A stretch of 64,000 nt of DNA from positions 5,664,001 to 5,728,000 of the forward strand of contig OY843751.1 of assembly GCA_963693055.1 (NCBI GenBank). The letters are read 5' to 3'. Made by a program: the position numbers and the translations under genes. Positions 30,463 through 42,957 of the stretch are shown here, one piece after another (position 1 is the stretch's first letter; each line of letters opens with the position of its first letter). This DNA comes from a bacterium. GTDB lineage: Bacteria > Zhuqueibacterota > Zhuqueibacteria > Residuimicrobiales > Krinioviventaceae. The notes below the pieces were generated by a model, which was given only the letters and a program-made list of their open reading frames with translations, was not told the DNA's origin and made no database searches.

Positions 30463-31806
30463 ATGAATACTTATCAAGCCGGAAAAAGCTTCGAAGATAA
30501 ATTTTATGAATTAATTAGAGATGAACTTGAAAATGAAAGATTACCATTCAAATCTAAATATTGTAAATTATATAAACAAAAAGGTTATTATTCTAAAGAT
30601 AGAGAATCTGAAATAAAAATAGATATCTCTATTGAAATAAACTTTCCCAACCAATTATTTTTATTAGTTGCTTTCGAATGTAAAAATTATAATCATAGAA
30701 TACCAGTAAACGACATTGAAGAATTCGATTCTAAATTAAGACAAATTGAAGGTTTAAATGTAAAGGGGATTTTTGTATCATCAAGTAGCTTTCAAAAAGG
30801 TGCATATAACTTTGCAAAAAACAAAAGAATAGGCTTAATTAGATTATTAAATGATAATAAATTAAAATGGGAATTAAGCAGAACAGTTTCTTTATTTACT
30901 AATGAGAAAGCAAACATAAATTATGAACATATTGAAGAAATATTAACTACTGATGAATTCATTCATGACTATATAAATTTTTATGCAATTTGGGATAAAC
31001 AATATTCAATTAATTTCAATCATTACCTATTTACATTAATAAAAGATAGTATACCCAAAAATTTCTTTTCTCTTCACAAGGAAATAAAAAATAAAAATAC
31101 AACAAACGGAACTGTCCCTTTTATCCCTGAAGAAGACATTGAAAATGAAACTTTAAAAATACTGAAAGGAATTGATTATAACGGTTCGGCAGTCTCTCTG
31201 GATACAATTTGTGAAAATTTGATCAAAGACAATAGACTTAATTTTTACTATAAAGACTCGATTGGTCATGATCATCTTGGTTATGAGATACTAGGTAAAA
31301 TCTCTTTCGATCCAACAGAAATAATAATAGCAAAAGATATACAAAGTAGTTCATTCAGGCAAAGATTTACAATTGCACATGAATTAGGACATTTTTTTTT
31401 ACTCCATAATAAGTTCATAAAAAATGAATACTATTCCGAAATTGATTATAAAAATAATGAAGAATATCTAATTCCAAATTCAAACATTAAAAAACTTGAA
31501 ACTCAAGCTAATATATTTGCTAGTCAATTGCTAATGCCAAAATTACATTTTATTAAAAAATTCTTTGAGTTACTCAAGAAAGAAAATATGAAAAATCGTG
31601 GTTTTGGATTTTTATATGTAGACAACCAACAAGGTAATTATAATAAATTCCTTATAATTACCAACTCATTAAGAAATCACTTTTATGTATCAAGGAAGGC
31701 TGTTATTATTAGACTAAAAGAGCTTAATTTGATAAATGAAGAAAGTGATAATAATTTAAATATCTCTTTAAGGCAAACTAAAAATAAAATTAATGACTGG
31801 TTTTAA
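30463..31806 (+). CDS. Mrr-like PD-(D/E)xK restriction endonuclease fused to ImmA/IrrE (M78) metallopeptidase
   Basis: N-terminal GKSFE...EIKIDI...FECKNY...GIFVSSSSFQKGA. C-terminal RQRFTIAHELGH...ETQANIFASQLLMP. Visibly AT-rich. Confidence 0.85.
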   Translation: MNTYQAGKSFEDKFYELIRDELENERLPFKSKYCKLYKQKGYYSKDRESEIKIDISIEINFPNQLFLLVAFECKNYNHRIPVNDIEEFDSKLRQIEGLNVKGIFVSSSSFQKGAYNFAKNKRIGLIRLLNDNKLKWELSRTVSLFTNEKANINYEHIEEILTTDEFIHDYINFYAIWDKQYSINFNHYLFTLIKDSIPKNFFSLHKEIKNKNTTNGTVPFIPEEDIENETLKILKGIDYNGSAVSLDTICENLIKDNRLNFYYKDSIGHDHLGYEILGKISFDPTEIIIAKDIQSSSFRQRFTIAHELGHFFLLHNKFIKNEYYSEIDYKNNEEYLIPNSNIKKLETQANIFASQLLMPKLHFIKKFFELLKKENMKNRGFGFLYVDNQQGNYNKFLIITNSLRNHFYVSRKAVIIRLKELNLINEESDNNLNISLRQTKNKINDWF

Positions 31807-34728: not shown

Positions 34729-34997
34729 ACCACTGCCTCTGAATATTTTATATAAGGGATTTCATAATGATATGCAAGAATTTCTAAAAATTCAACCAAA
34801 AACATTTAAATTTTAATCGTCATTTGCAGCTAATGGAAATATTTTGTTCAAGAATTCATGTTTAATAATTCGACAATGCTAACATAATATCAGGAATACA
34901 TTGATTATTACAAAAAACTAGATAAATTAGGTCAATTGATTCTTAATCACTTTGATCTACCTTGAAAATTGTTATACATACTACAAAGCAGTCCATT

Positions 34998-36404
34998 ATG
35001 AAAATGAATTTTAAAATTCTTCTCCTCAAAACAGTCTTGATAATGTTTATCTCTCTTTTCTTTTCCCAAGCCAGCATGTCCCAAACAACCACGAAAAAAG
35101 TAACGCAAGACTCTGTTCAAACAATTCAGGATATCTATTTACATACACGGGGCTTACAATACGATAAAAAAGACGGCGACGAAACATTTAGAAAAATTGC
35201 AAATAGTGCATTGTTTCTTCCCCGAATATGCATTGATGGATTACTGTATTCATTCGGAAGCGGTGCAAACTATGTTGAAGAATCGAATATTATTTTAAGA
35301 GCAGAAAATTTTCTCTATTTCTACAATAAAACGCTGGGTTGGTATCCCAAAATAAAATATTCATCAGATTACAAGCTGGCAGTGGGCGCGGCTGTTTTCT
35401 ACAAGCATTCCAACATGAAATACAGTATTGGTGCCTATTATGCAAACCGGAATTATTGGGATGCAAAAATCAGCTCTGTATATATTTTTCGCAACAACGG
35501 CGTCCTCTATAATATCAATCTTTCAGGACAAACCGGTGCGATTGAAGAAATGAAATTCTATGGCTATGGACACAATCCTTTACAGGATTCCCGTAATGCA
35601 ATTCTAAACCCCAATAAAAAATATGGCACTTTTAATCAGGAACGTTCAAAAATTCAACTGGTAACCGGCGCCCAAATCTCGTCACTATGGGAGTTCTTTT
35701 ATACAGCGTTCTATTCAAAACGTAAATTATTAATTCCTGATCCAAACAAAACAAATACTCTTGTGAATGTTTTTGATCTGGAAACACTACCTGGCATCAT
35801 TAATCAATCCAATCTTGAAACCGAGCAACTGTACAATGAATTCTCGTGCCGGTTCGATACCCGCTCGAACGTTAAAGAGTTATCACCCGGTATAAGACTA
35901 GAGGGGTATTGGGGATACGCAACGGGCATGAACATGGATAAAAGCCAATTCATAAGGACCGGGTTTGATGCCGCGTTTTACATACCCGTTATTCTGCGAA
36001 ATCGATTGATTGTACCTCGTATTCTGTTCGACAGCGTTCATAATCAAAACGAAAATTTTGCAATTCCCTTTACCGAATACATGCGCCAACCAGCTTTTCG
36101 AGGTGTATCAAGCCGACATCTGCTTAGAACAGACAATTATTCCATGGTCACGTCTTTGGAATATCAATGGCCGCTCACACAGCATTTTCGCGGACATATC
36201 TTTTATGATATGCTGCTTGTATCGCAGGAATTGAAAAGCTTGACTCTGCATCAAAATCCCTATGCAATAGGTATCGGTTTTGACTTGAACCAGTCACACA
36301 GTGAAATTTCAAGAGTATCATTAACTACCGGTAGTGAAGGATTTAGATTCATCCTGACAATGGGATTATCTGAAACCAATAGTTATAGAAGTAATTGGAA
36401 ATAA
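34998..36404 (+). CDS. Omp85/BamA-TamA-like outer-membrane beta-barrel lacking obvious POTRA domains
   Basis: Signal peptide, amphipathic strands, RFDTR, FYGYG, and loop-6-like AFRGV...SLEYQWPL...IFYD...AIGIGF. Confidence 0.65.
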   Translation: MKMNFKILLLKTVLIMFISLFFSQASMSQTTTKKVTQDSVQTIQDIYLHTRGLQYDKKDGDETFRKIANSALFLPRICIDGLLYSFGSGANYVEESNIILRAENFLYFYNKTLGWYPKIKYSSDYKLAVGAAVFYKHSNMKYSIGAYYANRNYWDAKISSVYIFRNNGVLYNINLSGQTGAIEEMKFYGYGHNPLQDSRNAILNPNKKYGTFNQERSKIQLVTGAQISSLWEFFYTAFYSKRKLLIPDPNKTNTLVNVFDLETLPGIINQSNLETEQLYNEFSCRFDTRSNVKELSPGIRLEGYWGYATGMNMDKSQFIRTGFDAAFYIPVILRNRLIVPRILFDSVHNQNENFAIPFTEYMRQPAFRGVSSRHLLRTDNYSMVTSLEYQWPLTQHFRGHIFYDMLLVSQELKSLTLHQNPYAIGIGFDLNQSHSEISRVSLTTGSEGFRFILTMGLSETNSYRSNWK

Positions 36405-36408
36405 TACA

Positions 36409-38049
36409 ATGATAAAAATAAACAGACCCGGACAATCCCATAAACACACATTGAAATCCATACTCTTTTTCGGATTTTTAATATACATCCTTTCTCTCGG
36501 TTGTTCCTCCCGACTTGGCAAATTTAAAGATGCACCTTTAATAACAACCGCAAACGATAAAAAACCGGTGCCTGTACCCAAATCCAGCAATTATGAAAAA
36601 TTATTCTATACCTATGATGTGCTGTTTAGAAATCCTATGGTCAACACATTGGATGTTTCAAAAATACCTCCCGCAATGGATGTTAACGCGGTGGATAATG
36701 TTATCACCTCCAGTTGGTACACACCGCGCCTGGGATTCAGAGACATATCCTCAAAAGAATTGTTACACGGTTTGGAAGAAATTGGGCCGCCCCAAAAGCC
36801 CTTTTATGTGAGTAAAGCCAAAAAAGGTGGTGGAAATCCGGGGTTCATCATCAAAGACAGCAGGGGTAAATCATATCTGCTGAAATTTGATCCCCCGGAA
36901 TTCCCAGGTATTGAAACCACAACGGATCTGATTGTGAGCCGCCTGTTTTGGGGATTTGGATATAATGTTCCCGAAGATTATTTGATCTATTTCAACAAGA
37001 ATGATTTGTTAATAGATGATAAAAGTGAACTTTCAATAAACGATTTAACAGACGTATTACACCAGGTTGCCGAACCCATAGACAATGTGTATCGCGCGAC
37101 TGCCAGCCTGTGGTTGCAGGGCATTTTTCTGGGCCCCATACCGGCAAAAGGGATCCGAAAAGACGATTTGAACGATCGCATCCCGCATGAAAACCTTCGC
37201 ATCCTTAGAGCATTAAAAGTCTTTTGTTCATTTGTGAACCATAGCGACATTCGAATTGACAACAGTGCAGATATCTATACCGGAGAACCCGGTAAAGGTC
37301 ATGTTGAACATTACCTACTGGATTTTGGAGAAGCCTTTGGCGGACATGGTGCGGAGCATGATTACAAATGGGATGGGTTTGAACATTATTTCAGTTACAG
37401 TTCTGCCTTTAACAATTTTATAGCAGCAGGATTAAAAATACATAATTGGGAGAAACTGGAATATACTCCCTGGAAATCTGTGGGTGCCTTTGAGGCAGAC
37501 AAATTTAATCCCGGTGAGTGGAAAGAAGTATACCCCTACCTGCCAATTCGATCCAGTCAACCCGCGGATGATTACTGGGCGGCAAAAATTCTGGCCGCTT
37601 TAACTGATGAGCATATTACCGCGTTGGTCAAAGCCGCTGATTATCCCGAACCGGACGCAGAAGCCTATATGATCAAAACCCTGATCCAACGCAGGGACAA
37701 GGCATTGACATATTTTATGAGCGAGGTAACGCCTATAGAATTTGAATCTGGAAATGAGAGCGAACTGGCCTTTGTTGATAATGAAAATTTACTGTTAGAC
37801 CGTGACAGTGATAAAATAGATTATCAAATAGAGTTGTTAAATCCGCAGGGCGAAAAGATCAAATCGCTTACCTGGCGTAAAACAGACGACAAGCGCATAG
37901 TCATCTCACTTGACAAGGACATAAACGCAAACCGTTATTCAATCGTCCGGATTGCGAAAGTAAAAAACTCTCATATTGCACCCTCTGCCGCAGAGTTTCA
38001 TTTTGTTGTAAACAATAATATAATCAACCTGGTGGGTGTAGTACATTAA
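36409..38049 (+). CDS. Lipoprotein with protein-kinase-like (HipA/PI4K/CotH-like) fold
   Basis: Lipobox LSLG-C; Gly loop KGGGNPG, YLLKFD, helix-C Glu (GIET), catalytic DIRIDN, LLDFG. Confidence 0.7.
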   Translation: MIKINRPGQSHKHTLKSILFFGFLIYILSLGCSSRLGKFKDAPLITTANDKKPVPVPKSSNYEKLFYTYDVLFRNPMVNTLDVSKIPPAMDVNAVDNVITSSWYTPRLGFRDISSKELLHGLEEIGPPQKPFYVSKAKKGGGNPGFIIKDSRGKSYLLKFDPPEFPGIETTTDLIVSRLFWGFGYNVPEDYLIYFNKNDLLIDDKSELSINDLTDVLHQVAEPIDNVYRATASLWLQGIFLGPIPAKGIRKDDLNDRIPHENLRILRALKVFCSFVNHSDIRIDNSADIYTGEPGKGHVEHYLLDFGEAFGGHGAEHDYKWDGFEHYFSYSSAFNNFIAAGLKIHNWEKLEYTPWKSVGAFEADKFNPGEWKEVYPYLPIRSSQPADDYWAAKILAALTDEHITALVKAADYPEPDAEAYMIKTLIQRRDKALTYFMSEVTPIEFESGNESELAFVDNENLLLDRDSDKIDYQIELLNPQGEKIKSLTWRKTDDKRIVISLDKDINANRYSIVRIAKVKNSHIAPSAAEFHFVVNNNIINLVGVVH

Positions 38050-38162
38050 ATCCCTGCTGAAATCCTAAAAATAACAAAATGATCAACAACTCTTCGATTC
38101 CAGTCAAAGATCGCCCACGAAACACACGAATAAACACAAAATCTTCTCCGTCCCAAATTCCG

Positions 38163-38436
38163 CAGACTGTGTGAAAATGAATCATATTAATAAAATATAG
38201 CGTTTTTTTGAAATTTACTATAAATAAGGTGGAGTGCATTACTTTTAAGGAATGTGGGCCGTCGAAGACGGCCTTGACAAGATTGTATATTTATAAAAAT
38301 ATTGAACTTATAATGACACTGAAATTACTTGATATTTGAGAATAAAAGCAGTTTTTTTTCGGACCTTTGGTCCGACGCTTCGCATAAACGCGATGCACTC
38401 CAAAAACACTATTTTTTCAAATTTTCACACAGTCTA
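38163..38436. mobile_element. MITE-like element with 15-bp terminal inverted repeats and 4-bp target duplication
   Basis: AGACTGTGTGAAAAT (38164-38178) and ATTTTCACACAGTCT (38421-38435). TCCG duplicated at 38159-38162 and 38437-38440. Confidence 0.7.
38230..38402 (-). repeat. 173-bp REPIN-like structured repeat, copy 1
   Basis: TGGAGTGCAT...ATGCACTCCA ends with four internal hairpins; homologous to 54860-56373 once the IS is removed. Confidence 0.75.
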
Positions 38437-38848
38437 TCCGATTTGGGACGGAACGATGGTGCGAAGCTCTGCTTTGCAAAAATTTATAAATTAATTATTT
38501 GTATTTTACACAGTTATCTCCAAGCACAGCTTGGAGCCAACTTTCCTTCCCAAATAAAATTTGGTTAGGAGATTATATGGTTTTTCAACTGTCACCTGAA
38601 GGATACATTTTAGCATACAGTAACATTTCGAGTTACCTCCGGGAGGGGTGTCCAAATTTTGTGCTTCGTGGGCAAAACCCCAACCAAGGGCATCTATTTC
38701 AGTAGATATAAAATCAGATTCCCCATACCCAAAAATATTAACTCTAAATTATACATGAATAAATCAAAAACTCCAAATTTCTGATATATCATATGATGGA
38801 TTGGAGTAAAAAAGAGCACATCCCCTTTTAATTGCCAGACATCAGGAA

Positions 38849-39354: not shown

Positions 39355-41289
39355 TTATAAAATTCTTCTGACCTGAACGGTCTCGGTAATGTGCTTCATG
39401 ATCTCAAATACCTGGTGCGACACATTCCGGTCCACATCCACAATCAAGTAACCGATGGAATCCCGAGTTTGCAATATCTGTCCCTCAACATTGATGTTGC
39501 GACGAGCAAACACGCTGTTGATCTTGGCAAGTACACCCGGCACATTCTTGTGAATGTGCAAAATGCGGTGGGTGTTTTCCACCCGGGGCAGCTCTACCTC
39601 GGGAAAATTGACTGACCCCATTGTGGACCCGGTTTTAACATAACTGATCATTTTCTCGCTTACATAACGAGCAATATTTTCTTGTGCTTCCAAAGTACTG
39701 CCGCCAATATGCGGAGTTAGAATAACATTGGGCATGCCCTGCAATGGCGACTGGAACGGTTCATCGGTACTTGCCGGTTCTGACGGAAACACATCCACTG
39801 CCGCACCGGCAATATGGCCATATTCCAACAACTTGTGCAGCGGCTCAATATCCACAACCCGTCCACGACTGGCATTGATCAGATAACTGCCGCGCTTCAT
39901 ACGCACCAGTTCTTTTTCTCCAATCAAACCACGTGTATCAAGAGTATCCGGTACATGCAGGGTAACCACATCAGAGCGTTCGAGCAGGTCGTAAAGGTCA
40001 TTTACTTTTTGCGCATTACCCAGGGGGAGTTTATCGACAATGTCATGGAACAGTACGGTCATTCCCAGATTTTCCAGCATGATGGAAACCTGCGAGCCAA
40101 TGTGTCCATACCCCACAATACCCACGGTTTTGCCACGGATCTCGCTGCAGCCCTCGGCCTGTTTCAACCATTGACCGGAATGTGCGGCCGCGCTCTTTTC
40201 AAAAGTACGCCGCATCAGCATAATGGTTTCTCCAACCACCAGCTCGGCAACTGAGCGGGTATTGCTGTACGGTGCGTTAAAAACCGGTATTCCTAATGCG
40301 GTTGCGGTTTCAAGATCGATCTGGTTGGTGCCAATACAAAAAGCACCAATCACCCACAAGTCTTTTAAATGGTTCAACACGTTGGCGGTAAGTTTGGTTT
40401 TTGAACGGATTCCCATTACATTGGCATGCAGGGCTTTATCAATCAGCTCTTGTTCACTCCATGCCGGTTGATAACTCGCCACATTGTATTGGGCGCTGTT
40501 TAACCGTTCAATGGCAATATTGTGTACATTCTCGAGGAGAAATACATTTGGGGTATGTAAATCTTCATCACTAAAACCGGCATCTTTGGCTTGCGGCTGA
40601 TATTCTTCTGTAGAGCTGAGAAGCGGCAGCAACTGATCAAAATTATCAATGGTAAAATCCGCCTGCAAACGAATGTCTTCACGATCAATTGTACCCGCGT
40701 AATAGACAAACATTTCCGCAATACCGTTTTTCTTGACAGCAAGATCGGTAACTCCATCTCCAATAATTGCGGTAGGGCCCGTCAACCGTTCCTGACTTTT
40801 CAATTGCTCTGAAACATAAACTTTTCCCAGGGTCATACATAGTGGACCGTCTTCCTGTATACCGAGAATAGTGCCATCATCATTTGTTTGCAGATGTGTT
40901 GTAAATACATTTTCACGGACTATGCCAAGTGCATCCGTAACAGGCAGCACAACAGGTTCGGGACTGGTACTGTAGACAAAAATGTTCTTGTCCCGTGCGC
41001 GCAAAGCATCGAGCGCTTCTTTGATCTTGGGATTTATGGTATTCACAATTGCTTTGGAAACAGCCTCAACATCCTCTGCTTCTAGCTGTGTCAGCGCATA
41101 GCGGCCGCTCATGGCTTTTGTGAGGGGAATTTCACCATTGGTGCATTGCCGGGTCAGGATTTGCATCTGTTCCAGTTTTTCCGTTTTTTCTTTTTCGGGC
41201 AATCTGCTCAAAGCATGCGCAATTAACAGTTCATTGCCTTCGGCATTAATGAGAGTACTGTCAAAATCAAATATAATATTATGAATCAT
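39355..41289 (-). CDS. serA: HAD phosphoserine-phosphatase-like domain fused to D-3-phosphoglycerate dehydrogenase with ACT domain
   Basis: N-terminal FDFDSTL and GDGVTD. Then GAFCIGTNQID, NAPYSNTRSVAE, GYGHIG, TPHIGGSTLEAQ and ACT-domain HKNVPGVL. Confidence 0.92.
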   Translation of the reverse strand: MIHNIIFDFDSTLINAEGNELLIAHALSRLPEKEKTEKLEQMQILTRQCTNGEIPLTKAMSGRYALTQLEAEDVEAVSKAIVNTINPKIKEALDALRARDKNIFVYSTSPEPVVLPVTDALGIVRENVFTTHLQTNDDGTILGIQEDGPLCMTLGKVYVSEQLKSQERLTGPTAIIGDGVTDLAVKKNGIAEMFVYYAGTIDREDIRLQADFTIDNFDQLLPLLSSTEEYQPQAKDAGFSDEDLHTPNVFLLENVHNIAIERLNSAQYNVASYQPAWSEQELIDKALHANVMGIRSKTKLTANVLNHLKDLWVIGAFCIGTNQIDLETATALGIPVFNAPYSNTRSVAELVVGETIMLMRRTFEKSAAAHSGQWLKQAEGCSEIRGKTVGIVGYGHIGSQVSIMLENLGMTVLFHDIVDKLPLGNAQKVNDLYDLLERSDVVTLHVPDTLDTRGLIGEKELVRMKRGSYLINASRGRVVDIEPLHKLLEYGHIAGAAVDVFPSEPASTDEPFQSPLQGMPNVILTPHIGGSTLEAQENIARYVSEKMISYVKTGSTMGSVNFPEVELPRVENTHRILHIHKNVPGVLAKINSVFARRNINVEGQILQTRDSIGYLIVDVDRNVSHQVFEIMKHITETVQVRRIL

Positions 41290-42408: not shown

Positions 42409-42957
42409 TTGCGAACCAGCTTTTTAACATTTTTTCTTGTGCTTTTTACCGGATGCCTGTTGGCAGCAGAACATGCAGATTTAAATGCTGTAGCAATCAC
42501 GCAAGTGAATCCTTTGGAAAATGACATCCAGGTAACGTTTGAAAATGACGAATCCATCAGCAATTCTCTCTATATTGAACAAGCCGGTATGATGAATATA
42601 TCAAGTGTAGATATTAAAGGCGACAAAAACCGGCTCAATCTTGAACAAACAGGTAACAACAACCTGCTGGAAATAGAGATTGAAGGAAGTAACAATGGCA
42701 AAACCCATTCATCTGATCCGAAACTGTCTGAGGGCATCTCTGTTAATCAAATCGGTAACAACAACAATGCAGACATTTCAATTATAAACAGCAGTAATAA
42801 CAATTTCATTATAAATCAAATCGGTTCCGAAAACCTCGCGTCTATCGTTCAGAAAAATGGCAAAGAGAATATAGTCTTGATTGAACAAGGCGATGGCAAC
42901 ACGGCAATTGTTGAACAGTTTGGCAGTTATAATTCGGTTACTGTTCAGCAGCAATAA
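42409..42957 (+). CDS. Curlin-repeat (CsgA/CsgB-like) secreted protein
   Basis: Signal peptide and repeated N-x3-I-x-Q-x-G-x-x-N units ending QFGSYNSVTVQQQ. Confidence 0.75.
   Translation: MRTSFLTFFLVLFTGCLLAAEHADLNAVAITQVNPLENDIQVTFENDESISNSLYIEQAGMMNISSVDIKGDKNRLNLEQTGNNNLLEIEIEGSNNGKTHSSDPKLSEGISVNQIGNNNNADISIINSSNNNFIINQIGSENLASIVQKNGKENIVLIEQGDGNTAIVEQFGSYNSVTVQQQ

Follow-up and report, generated by a model that had tools for sequence, protein, structure and literature searches.

An exported kinase-fold lipoprotein paired with a POTRA-less Omp85-family barrel, and linkage of the pair to NTT carrier genes

INTRODUCTION

Outer-membrane barrels of the noNterm Omp85 subfamily are described, in the parts of the literature available to us (PMC4104836; PMC11358297 for the Leptospira paralogues), as 16-stranded proteins that have an RG motif in loop 6, lack POTRA domains, adjoin lipoprotein genes and have no known function. 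The gene pair reported here shares these features. It occupies positions 34998–38049 of a 64,000-nucleotide stretch (the window) of contig OY843751.1, assembly GCA_963693055.1, from a bacterium of the Zhuqueibacterota; gene 1 encodes an Omp85-family barrel (P0001) and gene 2 an exported kinase-fold lipoprotein (P0002). What sets the window barrel apart from the noNterm proteins is a helical stretch of 65 residues at its N-terminus, the predicted binding site of a dedicated partner, together with a kinase gene as its obligate neighbour. Neither paper uses the word 'kinase' in its main text, in the form available. NF047779 scored 73.9 on a paralogue barrel, against a cut-off of 200, and did not match P0001, and DUF5982 matched none of the 64 barrel homologues.

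Metallo-Omp85 proteins (PF00149 + Omp85) contain the same three kinds of part as the present system, but in fused form, and the likeness of their kinase-like domain to P0002 is distant; the portion of Heinz and Lithgow 2014 (PMC4104836) at hand took the Metallo domain for a metalloprotease. In both PlpD-type and Metallo-Omp85 proteins the enzyme is fused N-terminal to the barrel, whereas the window has two genes. Two-partner secretion (TpsB/TpsA) and PlpD likewise dedicate an Omp85-type barrel to one partner. In contrast to these systems, the window pair has neither the two POTRA domains nor the TpsA β-helix, it is unfused, and the partner is a lipoprotein predicted to be periplasmic. The absence of N-terminal POTRA domains also separates gene 1 from the BamA/TamA insertases.

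Fam20C/Fam20 and Bacillus CotH are likewise atypical kinases outside the cytosol, and Fam20C is a top structural match of P0002. The latter differs from them in being lipid-anchored and paired with an outer-membrane barrel, in its low identity (10–11%) and in matching neither PF06702 nor the CotH family. CtkA, HipA/HipT, PI4K-II alpha, actin-fragmin kinase and MavQ share the fold and catalytic layout (Z 10.5–14.4), but they act as toxins, as host-targeted effectors or as enzymes of the cytoplasm, whereas P0002 has a lipoprotein signal and an Ig tail; no antitoxin gene accompanies the window pair. Secretory-pathway kinases are supplied by an ATP/ADP exchanger of the endoplasmic reticulum and Golgi. 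The bacterial periplasm is taught as being ATP-free. The NTT-HEAT(-cNBD) proteins of free-living bacteria, whose function is stated to be unknown in the available part of Major, Embley and Williams 2017 (PMC5381601), resemble the carriers reported below in matching PF03219 and in the order of an NTT-HEAT gene followed by a cNMP-binding gene. Unlike in that account, as far as it was available, NTTs are here linked to exported kinases and barrels, and the ATP export that we propose would be opposite to the import characterised so far.

RESULTS

Gene 1 encodes a POTRA-less Omp85-family barrel

Gene 1 (34998–36404, + strand) encodes 468 amino acids from an ATG codon; an alternative TTG start at 34962 would give a product of 480 amino acids. 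Gene 2 (36409–38049, + strand, 546 amino acids) follows after 4 bp, so that the two co-oriented genes stand as described in the original prediction, which was made from the sequence alone. Neither window protein has a Pfam or NCBIfam match.

In the AlphaFold2 model of gene 1 (alignment of 64 sequences, pLDDT 88.3), a signal helix is followed by helices at residues 43–106, 16 strands at residues 113–455 (35334–36362) and a short tail, and short and long strand connections alternate in an Omp85-like manner. A Sec signal peptide is predicted at approximately residues 1–28 (34998–35081) from a basic N-terminus and a hydrophobic helix, judged by eye. The loop 6 motif FRG (residues 367–369; 36096–36104) sits on the long loop that connects strand 11 with strand 12 (residues 350–380). 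Thus the 16-stranded β-barrel and the (V/F)RG(F/Y)-type loop 6 motif that mark the Omp85 superfamily are both present. Every match listed by Foldseek for this model was BamA or TamA (best E 9e-11), the gene 1 profile matched BamA and TamA chains among solved structures, and 32 of the 64 barrel homologues matched PF01103. R336, R368, Y389 and G425 are invariant in all 64 sequences. The exported Omp85-type barrel proposed originally is therefore borne out.

The claim that there was no room for POTRA domains holds in part. No POTRA was found in the model, where only helices precede strand 1, or by matches in the 64 homologues. The barrel nevertheless carries the helical segment 43–106 (35124–35315) in the POTRA position, and therefore it is not a bare barrel; this segment is the predicted main docking site of the kinase (interface residues 43–87). 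The non-standard C-terminal tail was also recovered. It extends 13 residues past strand 16 (36363–36401), ends in R-x-x-W-x and would be periplasmic by strand count. Among the 22 of 64 tails listed, the window's clade retains R-x-x-W, and in distant clades the ends differ, many of them being Phe.

Gene 2 encodes an exported lipoprotein having a kinase fold

The AlphaFold2 model of gene 2 (alignment of 73 sequences) has a pLDDT of 92.9. Its structural matches were CtkA (Z 14.4, rmsd 4.1, 237 aligned), Fam20C (Z 14.0, rmsd 4.0, 262 aligned), hydra Fam20 (Z 13.6), PI4K-II alpha (12.2), actin-fragmin kinase (11.3) and HipT (10.8). The kinase fold suspected earlier is thereby confirmed, and the match to CtkA places it with the bilobed PI3K/PI4K/HipA/Fam20-like atypical kinases. 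The kinase domain spans approximately residues 120–440 (36766–37728, + strand) and is followed by a C-terminal Ig/fibronectin-III-like β-sandwich (approximately residues 436–546; 37714–38046), which matches FnIII/Ig domains over ∼90 residues with Z 8.1–8.6. By sequence the family stands apart. None of the 73 members matched Fam20C (PF06702), HipA (PF07804/PF20613) or CotH (PF08757) at E up to 0.1, and no sequence relative was found among solved structures. The nearest named Atlas clusters score only 0.79, and a common Pfam family is lacking in all of the 30 nearest. This unnamed family comprises 3250 clusters at 50% identity (E up to 0.001).

The lipoprotein signal (36409–36504) ends in the lipobox LSLG-C32, with Cys32 at 36502–36504. 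This lipobox had been noted before, and we found the Cys in 65 of the 73 close homologues; in the wider set of 136, a regex lipobox was present in 87 and a hydrophobic N-terminus in 131. Cys32 follows a hydrophobic helix and is followed by Ser, with no Asp at +2, as in outer-membrane lipoproteins. The +2 rule for lipoprotein sorting stems from E. coli and may not hold in this host.

The catalytic residues (β-3 Lys, catalytic Asp, metal-binding Asn and DFG Asp) were assigned by the order of motifs, not by superposition: after the Gly loop KGGGNPG come YLLK159 (36883), D280IRIDN285 (37246 and 37261) and D305FG (37321). Among 139 diverse homologues K159 is kept in 130, D280 in 126, N285 in 130 and D305 in 134. 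The kinase elements listed originally are thus present, but the proposed helix-C Glu, E169, is conserved in only 49 of the 139. Position 173, an Asp in gene 2, is acidic in 95 (E 59, D 36), and from the motif it would be the better HipA-type helix-C acid. An 11-member monophyletic subclade, which includes one own-genome paralogue, has a degenerate Gly-loop and often DFD; its members may be pseudokinases.

The pairing of barrel and kinase is obligate

A GTDB scan gave 273 relatives, of which the best 80 loci were examined. In 75 of them the kinase gene is immediately preceded by a co-oriented barrel homologue, and the other five are at a contig edge with <200 bp of upstream sequence. In the reciprocal check, made on genomes of the window's own phylum, each of the 11 best full-length barrel matches was just upstream of a kinase match. 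The conserved pairing that had been anticipated is obligate, and none of the outcomes that would have refuted the original prediction was seen. The genome itself has three such pairs including the window copy, and close homologues are labelled Calditrichia/KSB1, a lineage to which the host therefore probably belongs; no relatives were found in viral contigs or plasmids. Barrel and kinase distances are correlated (rho 0.80), with the same nearest neighbour in 39 of 61, and we did not count this as evidence of binding because it is expected of co-inherited genes.

The two proteins are separate genes, in the window (gene 1 stop at 36402–36404) and likewise at the paired loci. Longer fused kinase forms were absent among 3906 candidates, which is weak evidence. 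Kinase open reading frames of 785–1050 amino acids in the GC-rich loci L057, L059 and L070 were considered as fusions and rejected, as they overlap the upstream barrel gene in another frame; we read them as over-extended frames.

The original prediction knew of no characterised system with this pairing, and we found none in the searches run. Among the papers listed by the literature searches, which covered few subscription journals, no description of a barrel–kinase–NTT system was encountered. The envelope system is real, widespread and apparently undescribed, consisting of known folds in a new arrangement.

We also recorded other genes near some pairs. The third own-genome pair (L005:3568–9300; G000:C1, ∼2.145–2.150 Mb) stands behind a GT4 glycosyltransferase gene on the same strand and has a divergent CehA/McbA-like metallohydrolase gene. 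In four Calditrichia loci (L012, L018, L021 and L046) a patatin-Omp85 (PlpD-like) gene follows the kinase gene at a distance of ∼1–2.5 kb and is co-oriented with it.

The lipoprotein is predicted to dock on the periplasmic face of the barrel

We modelled the complex of barrel residues 40–468 with kinase residues 32–546. The score was 0.76, against 0.00 for the best control; of 157 solved complexes 116 attain the mark used, as do 2 of 215 mismatched pairs, rates that are approximate for the alignments used here. Three runs shared at least 90% of the contacts, with a partner pLDDT of 86. On the barrel the predicted contacts fall at residues 43–87, 294, 332–336 and 389–401, which places them in the N-terminal segment and in three turns, those joining strands 8/9, 10/11 and 12/13 (T4, T5 and T6). 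These turns face the periplasm in the Omp85 topology. On the kinase they include residues 32–48, beside the lipidated Cys, 66–99 and the post-DFG segment 318–348. Docking of the lipoprotein on the periplasmic face of the barrel is, judging from this model, quite probable.

NTT carrier genes accompany the kinase

Neighbouring genes were clustered for 82 loci, namely the best 80 and the two own-genome paralogue loci. The recurrent neighbours were NTT/TLC carriers, NTT-HEAT fusions, cNMP-binding proteins and calcineurin-like phosphoesterases, the last having hydrophobic N-termini or lipoboxes. An NTT gene is present in 29 of the 82 loci, and in 19 of the 43 that are at least 15 kb long; a cNMP-binding gene is present in 18 of the 82. 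The carriers match PF03219 (45.1 and 57.4 bits; cut-off 21), and the NTT profile matches the solved ATP/ADP carriers 9j3n (E 1.5e-22) and 9j3j.

We then counted whole genomes. The phylum sample comprised 133 genomes with a completeness of 85% or more, and the kinase occurs in 34 (58 kinase genes). An NTT occurs in 32 of these 34 versus 12 of the 99 others, and for the single-domain NTT the difference is 27 of 34 versus 1 of 99; of the 28 single-domain NTT genes, 23 are no more than 3.5 kb away from a kinase gene and share its strand. A second phylum sample comprised 121 genomes around one myxococcal genome picked for having the kinase. Ten have the kinase, nine of which have an NTT (within 6 kb in seven), as do 28 of the 111 kinase-less genomes. 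On a tree of 83 kinases, the presence of a nearby NTT changes 16 times, and at least 11 of the changes are forced by well-supported branches, because of which the trait is not one inherited block. All 25 genomes reached via the window-clade loci have an NTT-type gene, although only 2 of the 25 loci have one within 8 kb.

The own genome (6.5 Mb) has a single NTT locus, which starts 68 bp after the second paralogue. The genes of this second pair and its surroundings (L004:2139–13558; G000:C1, ∼2.603–2.615 Mb) are all co-oriented, namely PAP2 phosphatase, PAS histidine kinase, barrel, degenerate kinase, NTT, NTT-HEAT, cNMP-binding protein and response regulator.

The NTT linkage is the strongest functional clue, and the carrier is the likely ATP source of the kinase. 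The original prediction had pointed to the ATP-poor periplasm as a difficulty, but this linkage was not visible from the window.

One locus (L118:1767–18646) has the barrel, kinase, phosphoesterase, Na/Pi cotransporter, PhoU and NTT genes in one row, with a phytase-like/SdiA-regulated propeller nearby, and a similar propeller (L139:4865–5773) precedes the Metallo-Omp85 gene of Fulvitalea. The gene contents of these two loci hint at phosphate metabolism.

Kinase-like domains fused to Omp85 barrels

A protein of 906 amino acids, P0269, located after NTT-HEAT, cNMP and NTT genes, combines a signal peptide and an Omp85 barrel with a domain in which the motifs GGLQT, YSFR and GDFDRH occur; its kinase-like domain has 1284 relatives. 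Such fusions after the NTT-HEAT/cNMP/NTT cassette were seen at L130:6272–8992, L131:9401–12148 and L132:9334–12132. The Bacteroidota protein WP_338395284.1 of Fulvitalea (L139:5819–9499) has PF00149 at residues 40–235 and an Omp85 barrel at its end, and its otherwise unannotated middle (approximately 388–747) matches the kinase-like domain of the P0269 family (E 4e-83). We read Metallo-Omp85 as a phosphoesterase, a kinase-like domain and a barrel in one chain because its middle matches this family of kinase–barrel fusions.

We considered P0269 and Metallo-Omp85 as fused orthologues of the window pair and rejected this. A match is evident for the barrel (probability 97.7%) but weak for the kinase parts: against P0002 the P0269/Metallo kinase-like domain gave an hhalign E of 0.0016, with a probability of 16% over 268 collinear columns, and E 0.03 in another comparison. 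On these sequence comparisons the fused proteins are treated as a parallel design and not as orthologues. One further sequence from one contig (P0386, 1321 amino acids) has an NTT fused in frame to a signal peptide, a kinase-like domain and a barrel, which may be due to a lost stop codon or an assembly error.

Other exported enzymes near NTT genes

In kinase-less genomes, NTT-HEAT is often beside a signal-peptide PPDK_N protein and two exported β-lactamase-fold proteins. The signal-peptide PPDK_N protein is found in 16 of the 133 genomes of the phylum sample; 15 of them have an NTT, in 7 cases on the same contig within ∼4 kb. Taking both exported enzymes (kinase or PPDK_N), an NTT is present in 41 of the 44 genomes having either and in 3 of the 89 having neither. 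Among these three, G047 has NTT-HEAT right after another exported PI3/PI4-kinase-like protein, and two are unexplained. In the second sample 19 NTT loci are not adjacent to the kinase: four are PPDK clusters, one is partial at a contig end, three have the kinase-like/barrel fusion and the other 11 are taken up below.

As separate observations, the NTT or NTT-HEAT gene, a ∼980-amino-acid signal-peptide PPDK_N protein and two exported PF13354 proteins form a conserved cluster (L086, L087, L088, L090, L107 (2985–11558), L110, L111, L124, L126, L127 and L129), a candidate for a second ATP-fed periplasmic system by gene content. At L113:5841–9793 an exported 323-amino-acid PI3/PI4-kinase-like protein of a different family (P0268) is encoded directly before an NTT-HEAT gene.

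DISCUSSION

A proposed function and its alternatives

From the two folds, the export signals, the intact catalytic residues, the obligate pairing and the NTT gene linkage, all read from sequence or by prediction tools, we propose a periplasmic kinase that is docked on the barrel, probably draws ATP from an NTT encoded elsewhere in the genome and phosphorylates an envelope substrate. We hold this to be somewhat better than evenly probable. The gene 2 lipoprotein would be anchored in the inner leaflet of the outer membrane and would dock on the periplasmic turns and N-terminal segment of the barrel. NTT or NTT-HEAT may run in the ATP-out/ADP-in direction and so feed the kinase; going by the gene neighbourhoods, we regard this direction as fairly probable. 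The window pair would share the single NTT locus that adjoins the second own-genome pair. The kinase would then transfer phosphate to its substrate, and the exported calcineurin-like phosphoesterase, where present, could remove the mark. As the substrate we tentatively prefer Ser/Thr of an outer-membrane or periplasmic protein held or presented by the barrel; hydroxyls of lipids or glycans at the membrane surface come close behind in probability, and a solute entering through the barrel is somewhat less probable. The barrel may supply the substrate of the kinase, which the original prediction had offered as its second possibility. That genomes with the pair nearly always have genes of the ATP/ADP-carrier type suggests, short of proof, periplasmic ATP-driven phosphorylation by this system.

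Several observations weigh against this proposal. According to the available part of PMC5381601, the NTTs characterised so far are nucleotide importers of parasites and plastids, and the cargo of some is NAD or other nucleotides. TIGR00769 gave 36.7 for NTT-HEAT, against a cut-off of 387, and no match for the single-domain NTT. In the phylum sample an NTT is found within 4 kb of only 28 of the 58 kinase genes, and three genomes (G028, G107 and G278) have the kinase with no NTT detected. The window locus itself has neither an NTT nor a phosphatase gene, and the kinase beside the own-genome NTT, that of paralogue 2, has a degenerate Gly-loop, D280E and DFD. A phosphoesterase is near only 10 of the 82 loci. 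No NTT lies within 7 kb of the Fulvitalea Metallo-Omp85 gene, the one such locus seen in full context. Those 11 of the 19 second-sample NTT loci have no recognisable exported ATP user within ∼7 kb. Conservation at the predicted interface does not exceed that of the remaining residues in either protein. Finally, Fisher values and genome counts overstate independence because the genomes are kin.

The same genes could instead form an uptake module. The barrel would serve as its channel, nucleotides or phosphorylated solutes arriving in the periplasm would be processed there by the kinase-fold and phosphoesterase lipoproteins, and the NTT, working inward as usual, would take up the product. The direction of the characterised NTTs (PMC5381601, in the part available) agrees with such a module, as do the Na/Pi cotransporter, PhoU and phytase-like propeller among the system genes at L118 and the post-DFG segment 318–348 of the kinase, which faces the barrel in the predicted complex. 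A kinase with intact K/D/N/D would nevertheless still require a periplasmic phosphoryl donor, and genes for substrate-binding proteins or TonB are not recurrent among the neighbour clusters listed. Moreover, the NTTs accompany three unrelated exported ATP-binding folds, and therefore a shared supply role fits better than a shared product. We consider the uptake module unlikely. The original prediction had rather favoured surface display, with the barrel flipping or secreting the lipoprotein outward, in the manner of two-partner secretion or PlpD, to act on outside substrates. Omp85/TpsB barrels do translocate partners (PMC4104836), Leptospira noNterm genes adjoin lipoproteins suggested to be surface-exposed (PMC11358297; both from the parts available), and periplasmic docking could precede transport. 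This display is argued against because gene 1 has no POTRA and the model puts every contact on the N-terminal segment or at turns T4–T6 of the periplasmic side, wrapped beside the lipid anchor. Besides, the gene 1 fold is nearer to BamA/TamA than to TpsB in all matches listed, the partner lacks a TpsA-type β-helix, and an inner-membrane carrier would supply the periplasm rather than the surface. We consequently depart from the original prediction here and regard display as rather improbable.

It could also be that gene 2 is non-catalytic and, like the lipoproteins of BAM, assists a specialised insertase, either as an accessory subunit or by sensing nucleotides. The 11-member subclade, own-genome paralogue included, that lost the Gly-loop glycines and often has DFD, and the poor conservation of the helix-C acid, speak for this reading. 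K159, D280, N285 and D305, on the contrary, are kept in 91–96% of the 139 homologues and in the window copy, and exported phosphoesterases recur beside the kinase or are fused to it in Metallo-Omp85, which makes a non-catalytic role very improbable.

The barrel-docked kinase can be placed in a broader frame, which we offer tentatively. Many free-living diderms may run an ATP-supplied periplasm, in which NTTs pump ATP outward to exported enzymes; the commonest client would be the barrel–kinase pair as a 'receptor kinase', reversed by a phosphatase, and Metallo-Omp85 would be its fused version. If true, this would apply to KSB1/Calditrichia, Myxococcota, Acidobacteriota, Gemmatimonadota, Fibrobacterota, Omnitrophota and others. 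The system would connect the view of an ATP-free periplasm with the open role of NTTs in free-living bacteria (Major et al. 2017, PMC5381601, as far as available). The orphan noNterm and Metallo Omp85 subfamilies would gain a candidate function besides insertion or secretion, and there would be a bacterial parallel to secretory-pathway phosphorylation of the Fam20C type.

Surroundings of the window locus

The window copy is the minimal two-gene form of the system. It had been described as isolated by long gaps, which is true only in a modest sense. Upstream, 269 bp separate gene 1 from a divergent α-rhamnosidase gene; downstream, the 799 bp to a convergent thioesterase gene are mostly occupied by dispersed inverted-repeat elements present elsewhere in the genome. 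These MITE-like elements (38147–38555, no strand; inverted arms of 32 and 34 nt) lie outside the system and have two copies at 91% identity and ∼20 weaker matches elsewhere in the genome. A promoter and terminator scan stayed close to the shuffled level (20 versus 14.6 ± 3.8 and 7 versus 3.6 ± 1.8), and no RNA holder was among the entries listed.

The α-rhamnosidase, the thioesterase and a SerB-PGDH fusion, which are the neighbours in the window, do not recur among the neighbour clusters of the related loci. The last of these, at 39355–41289, is a HAD phosphatase (SerB-like) fused to phosphoglycerate dehydrogenase. Further away, a low-GC (23–26%) gene at 30463–31806, in which an Mrr-like restriction nuclease domain is fused to an IrrE/M78 peptidase domain, is likely to have been acquired horizontally, and an exported protein with curlin repeats is encoded at 42409–42957.

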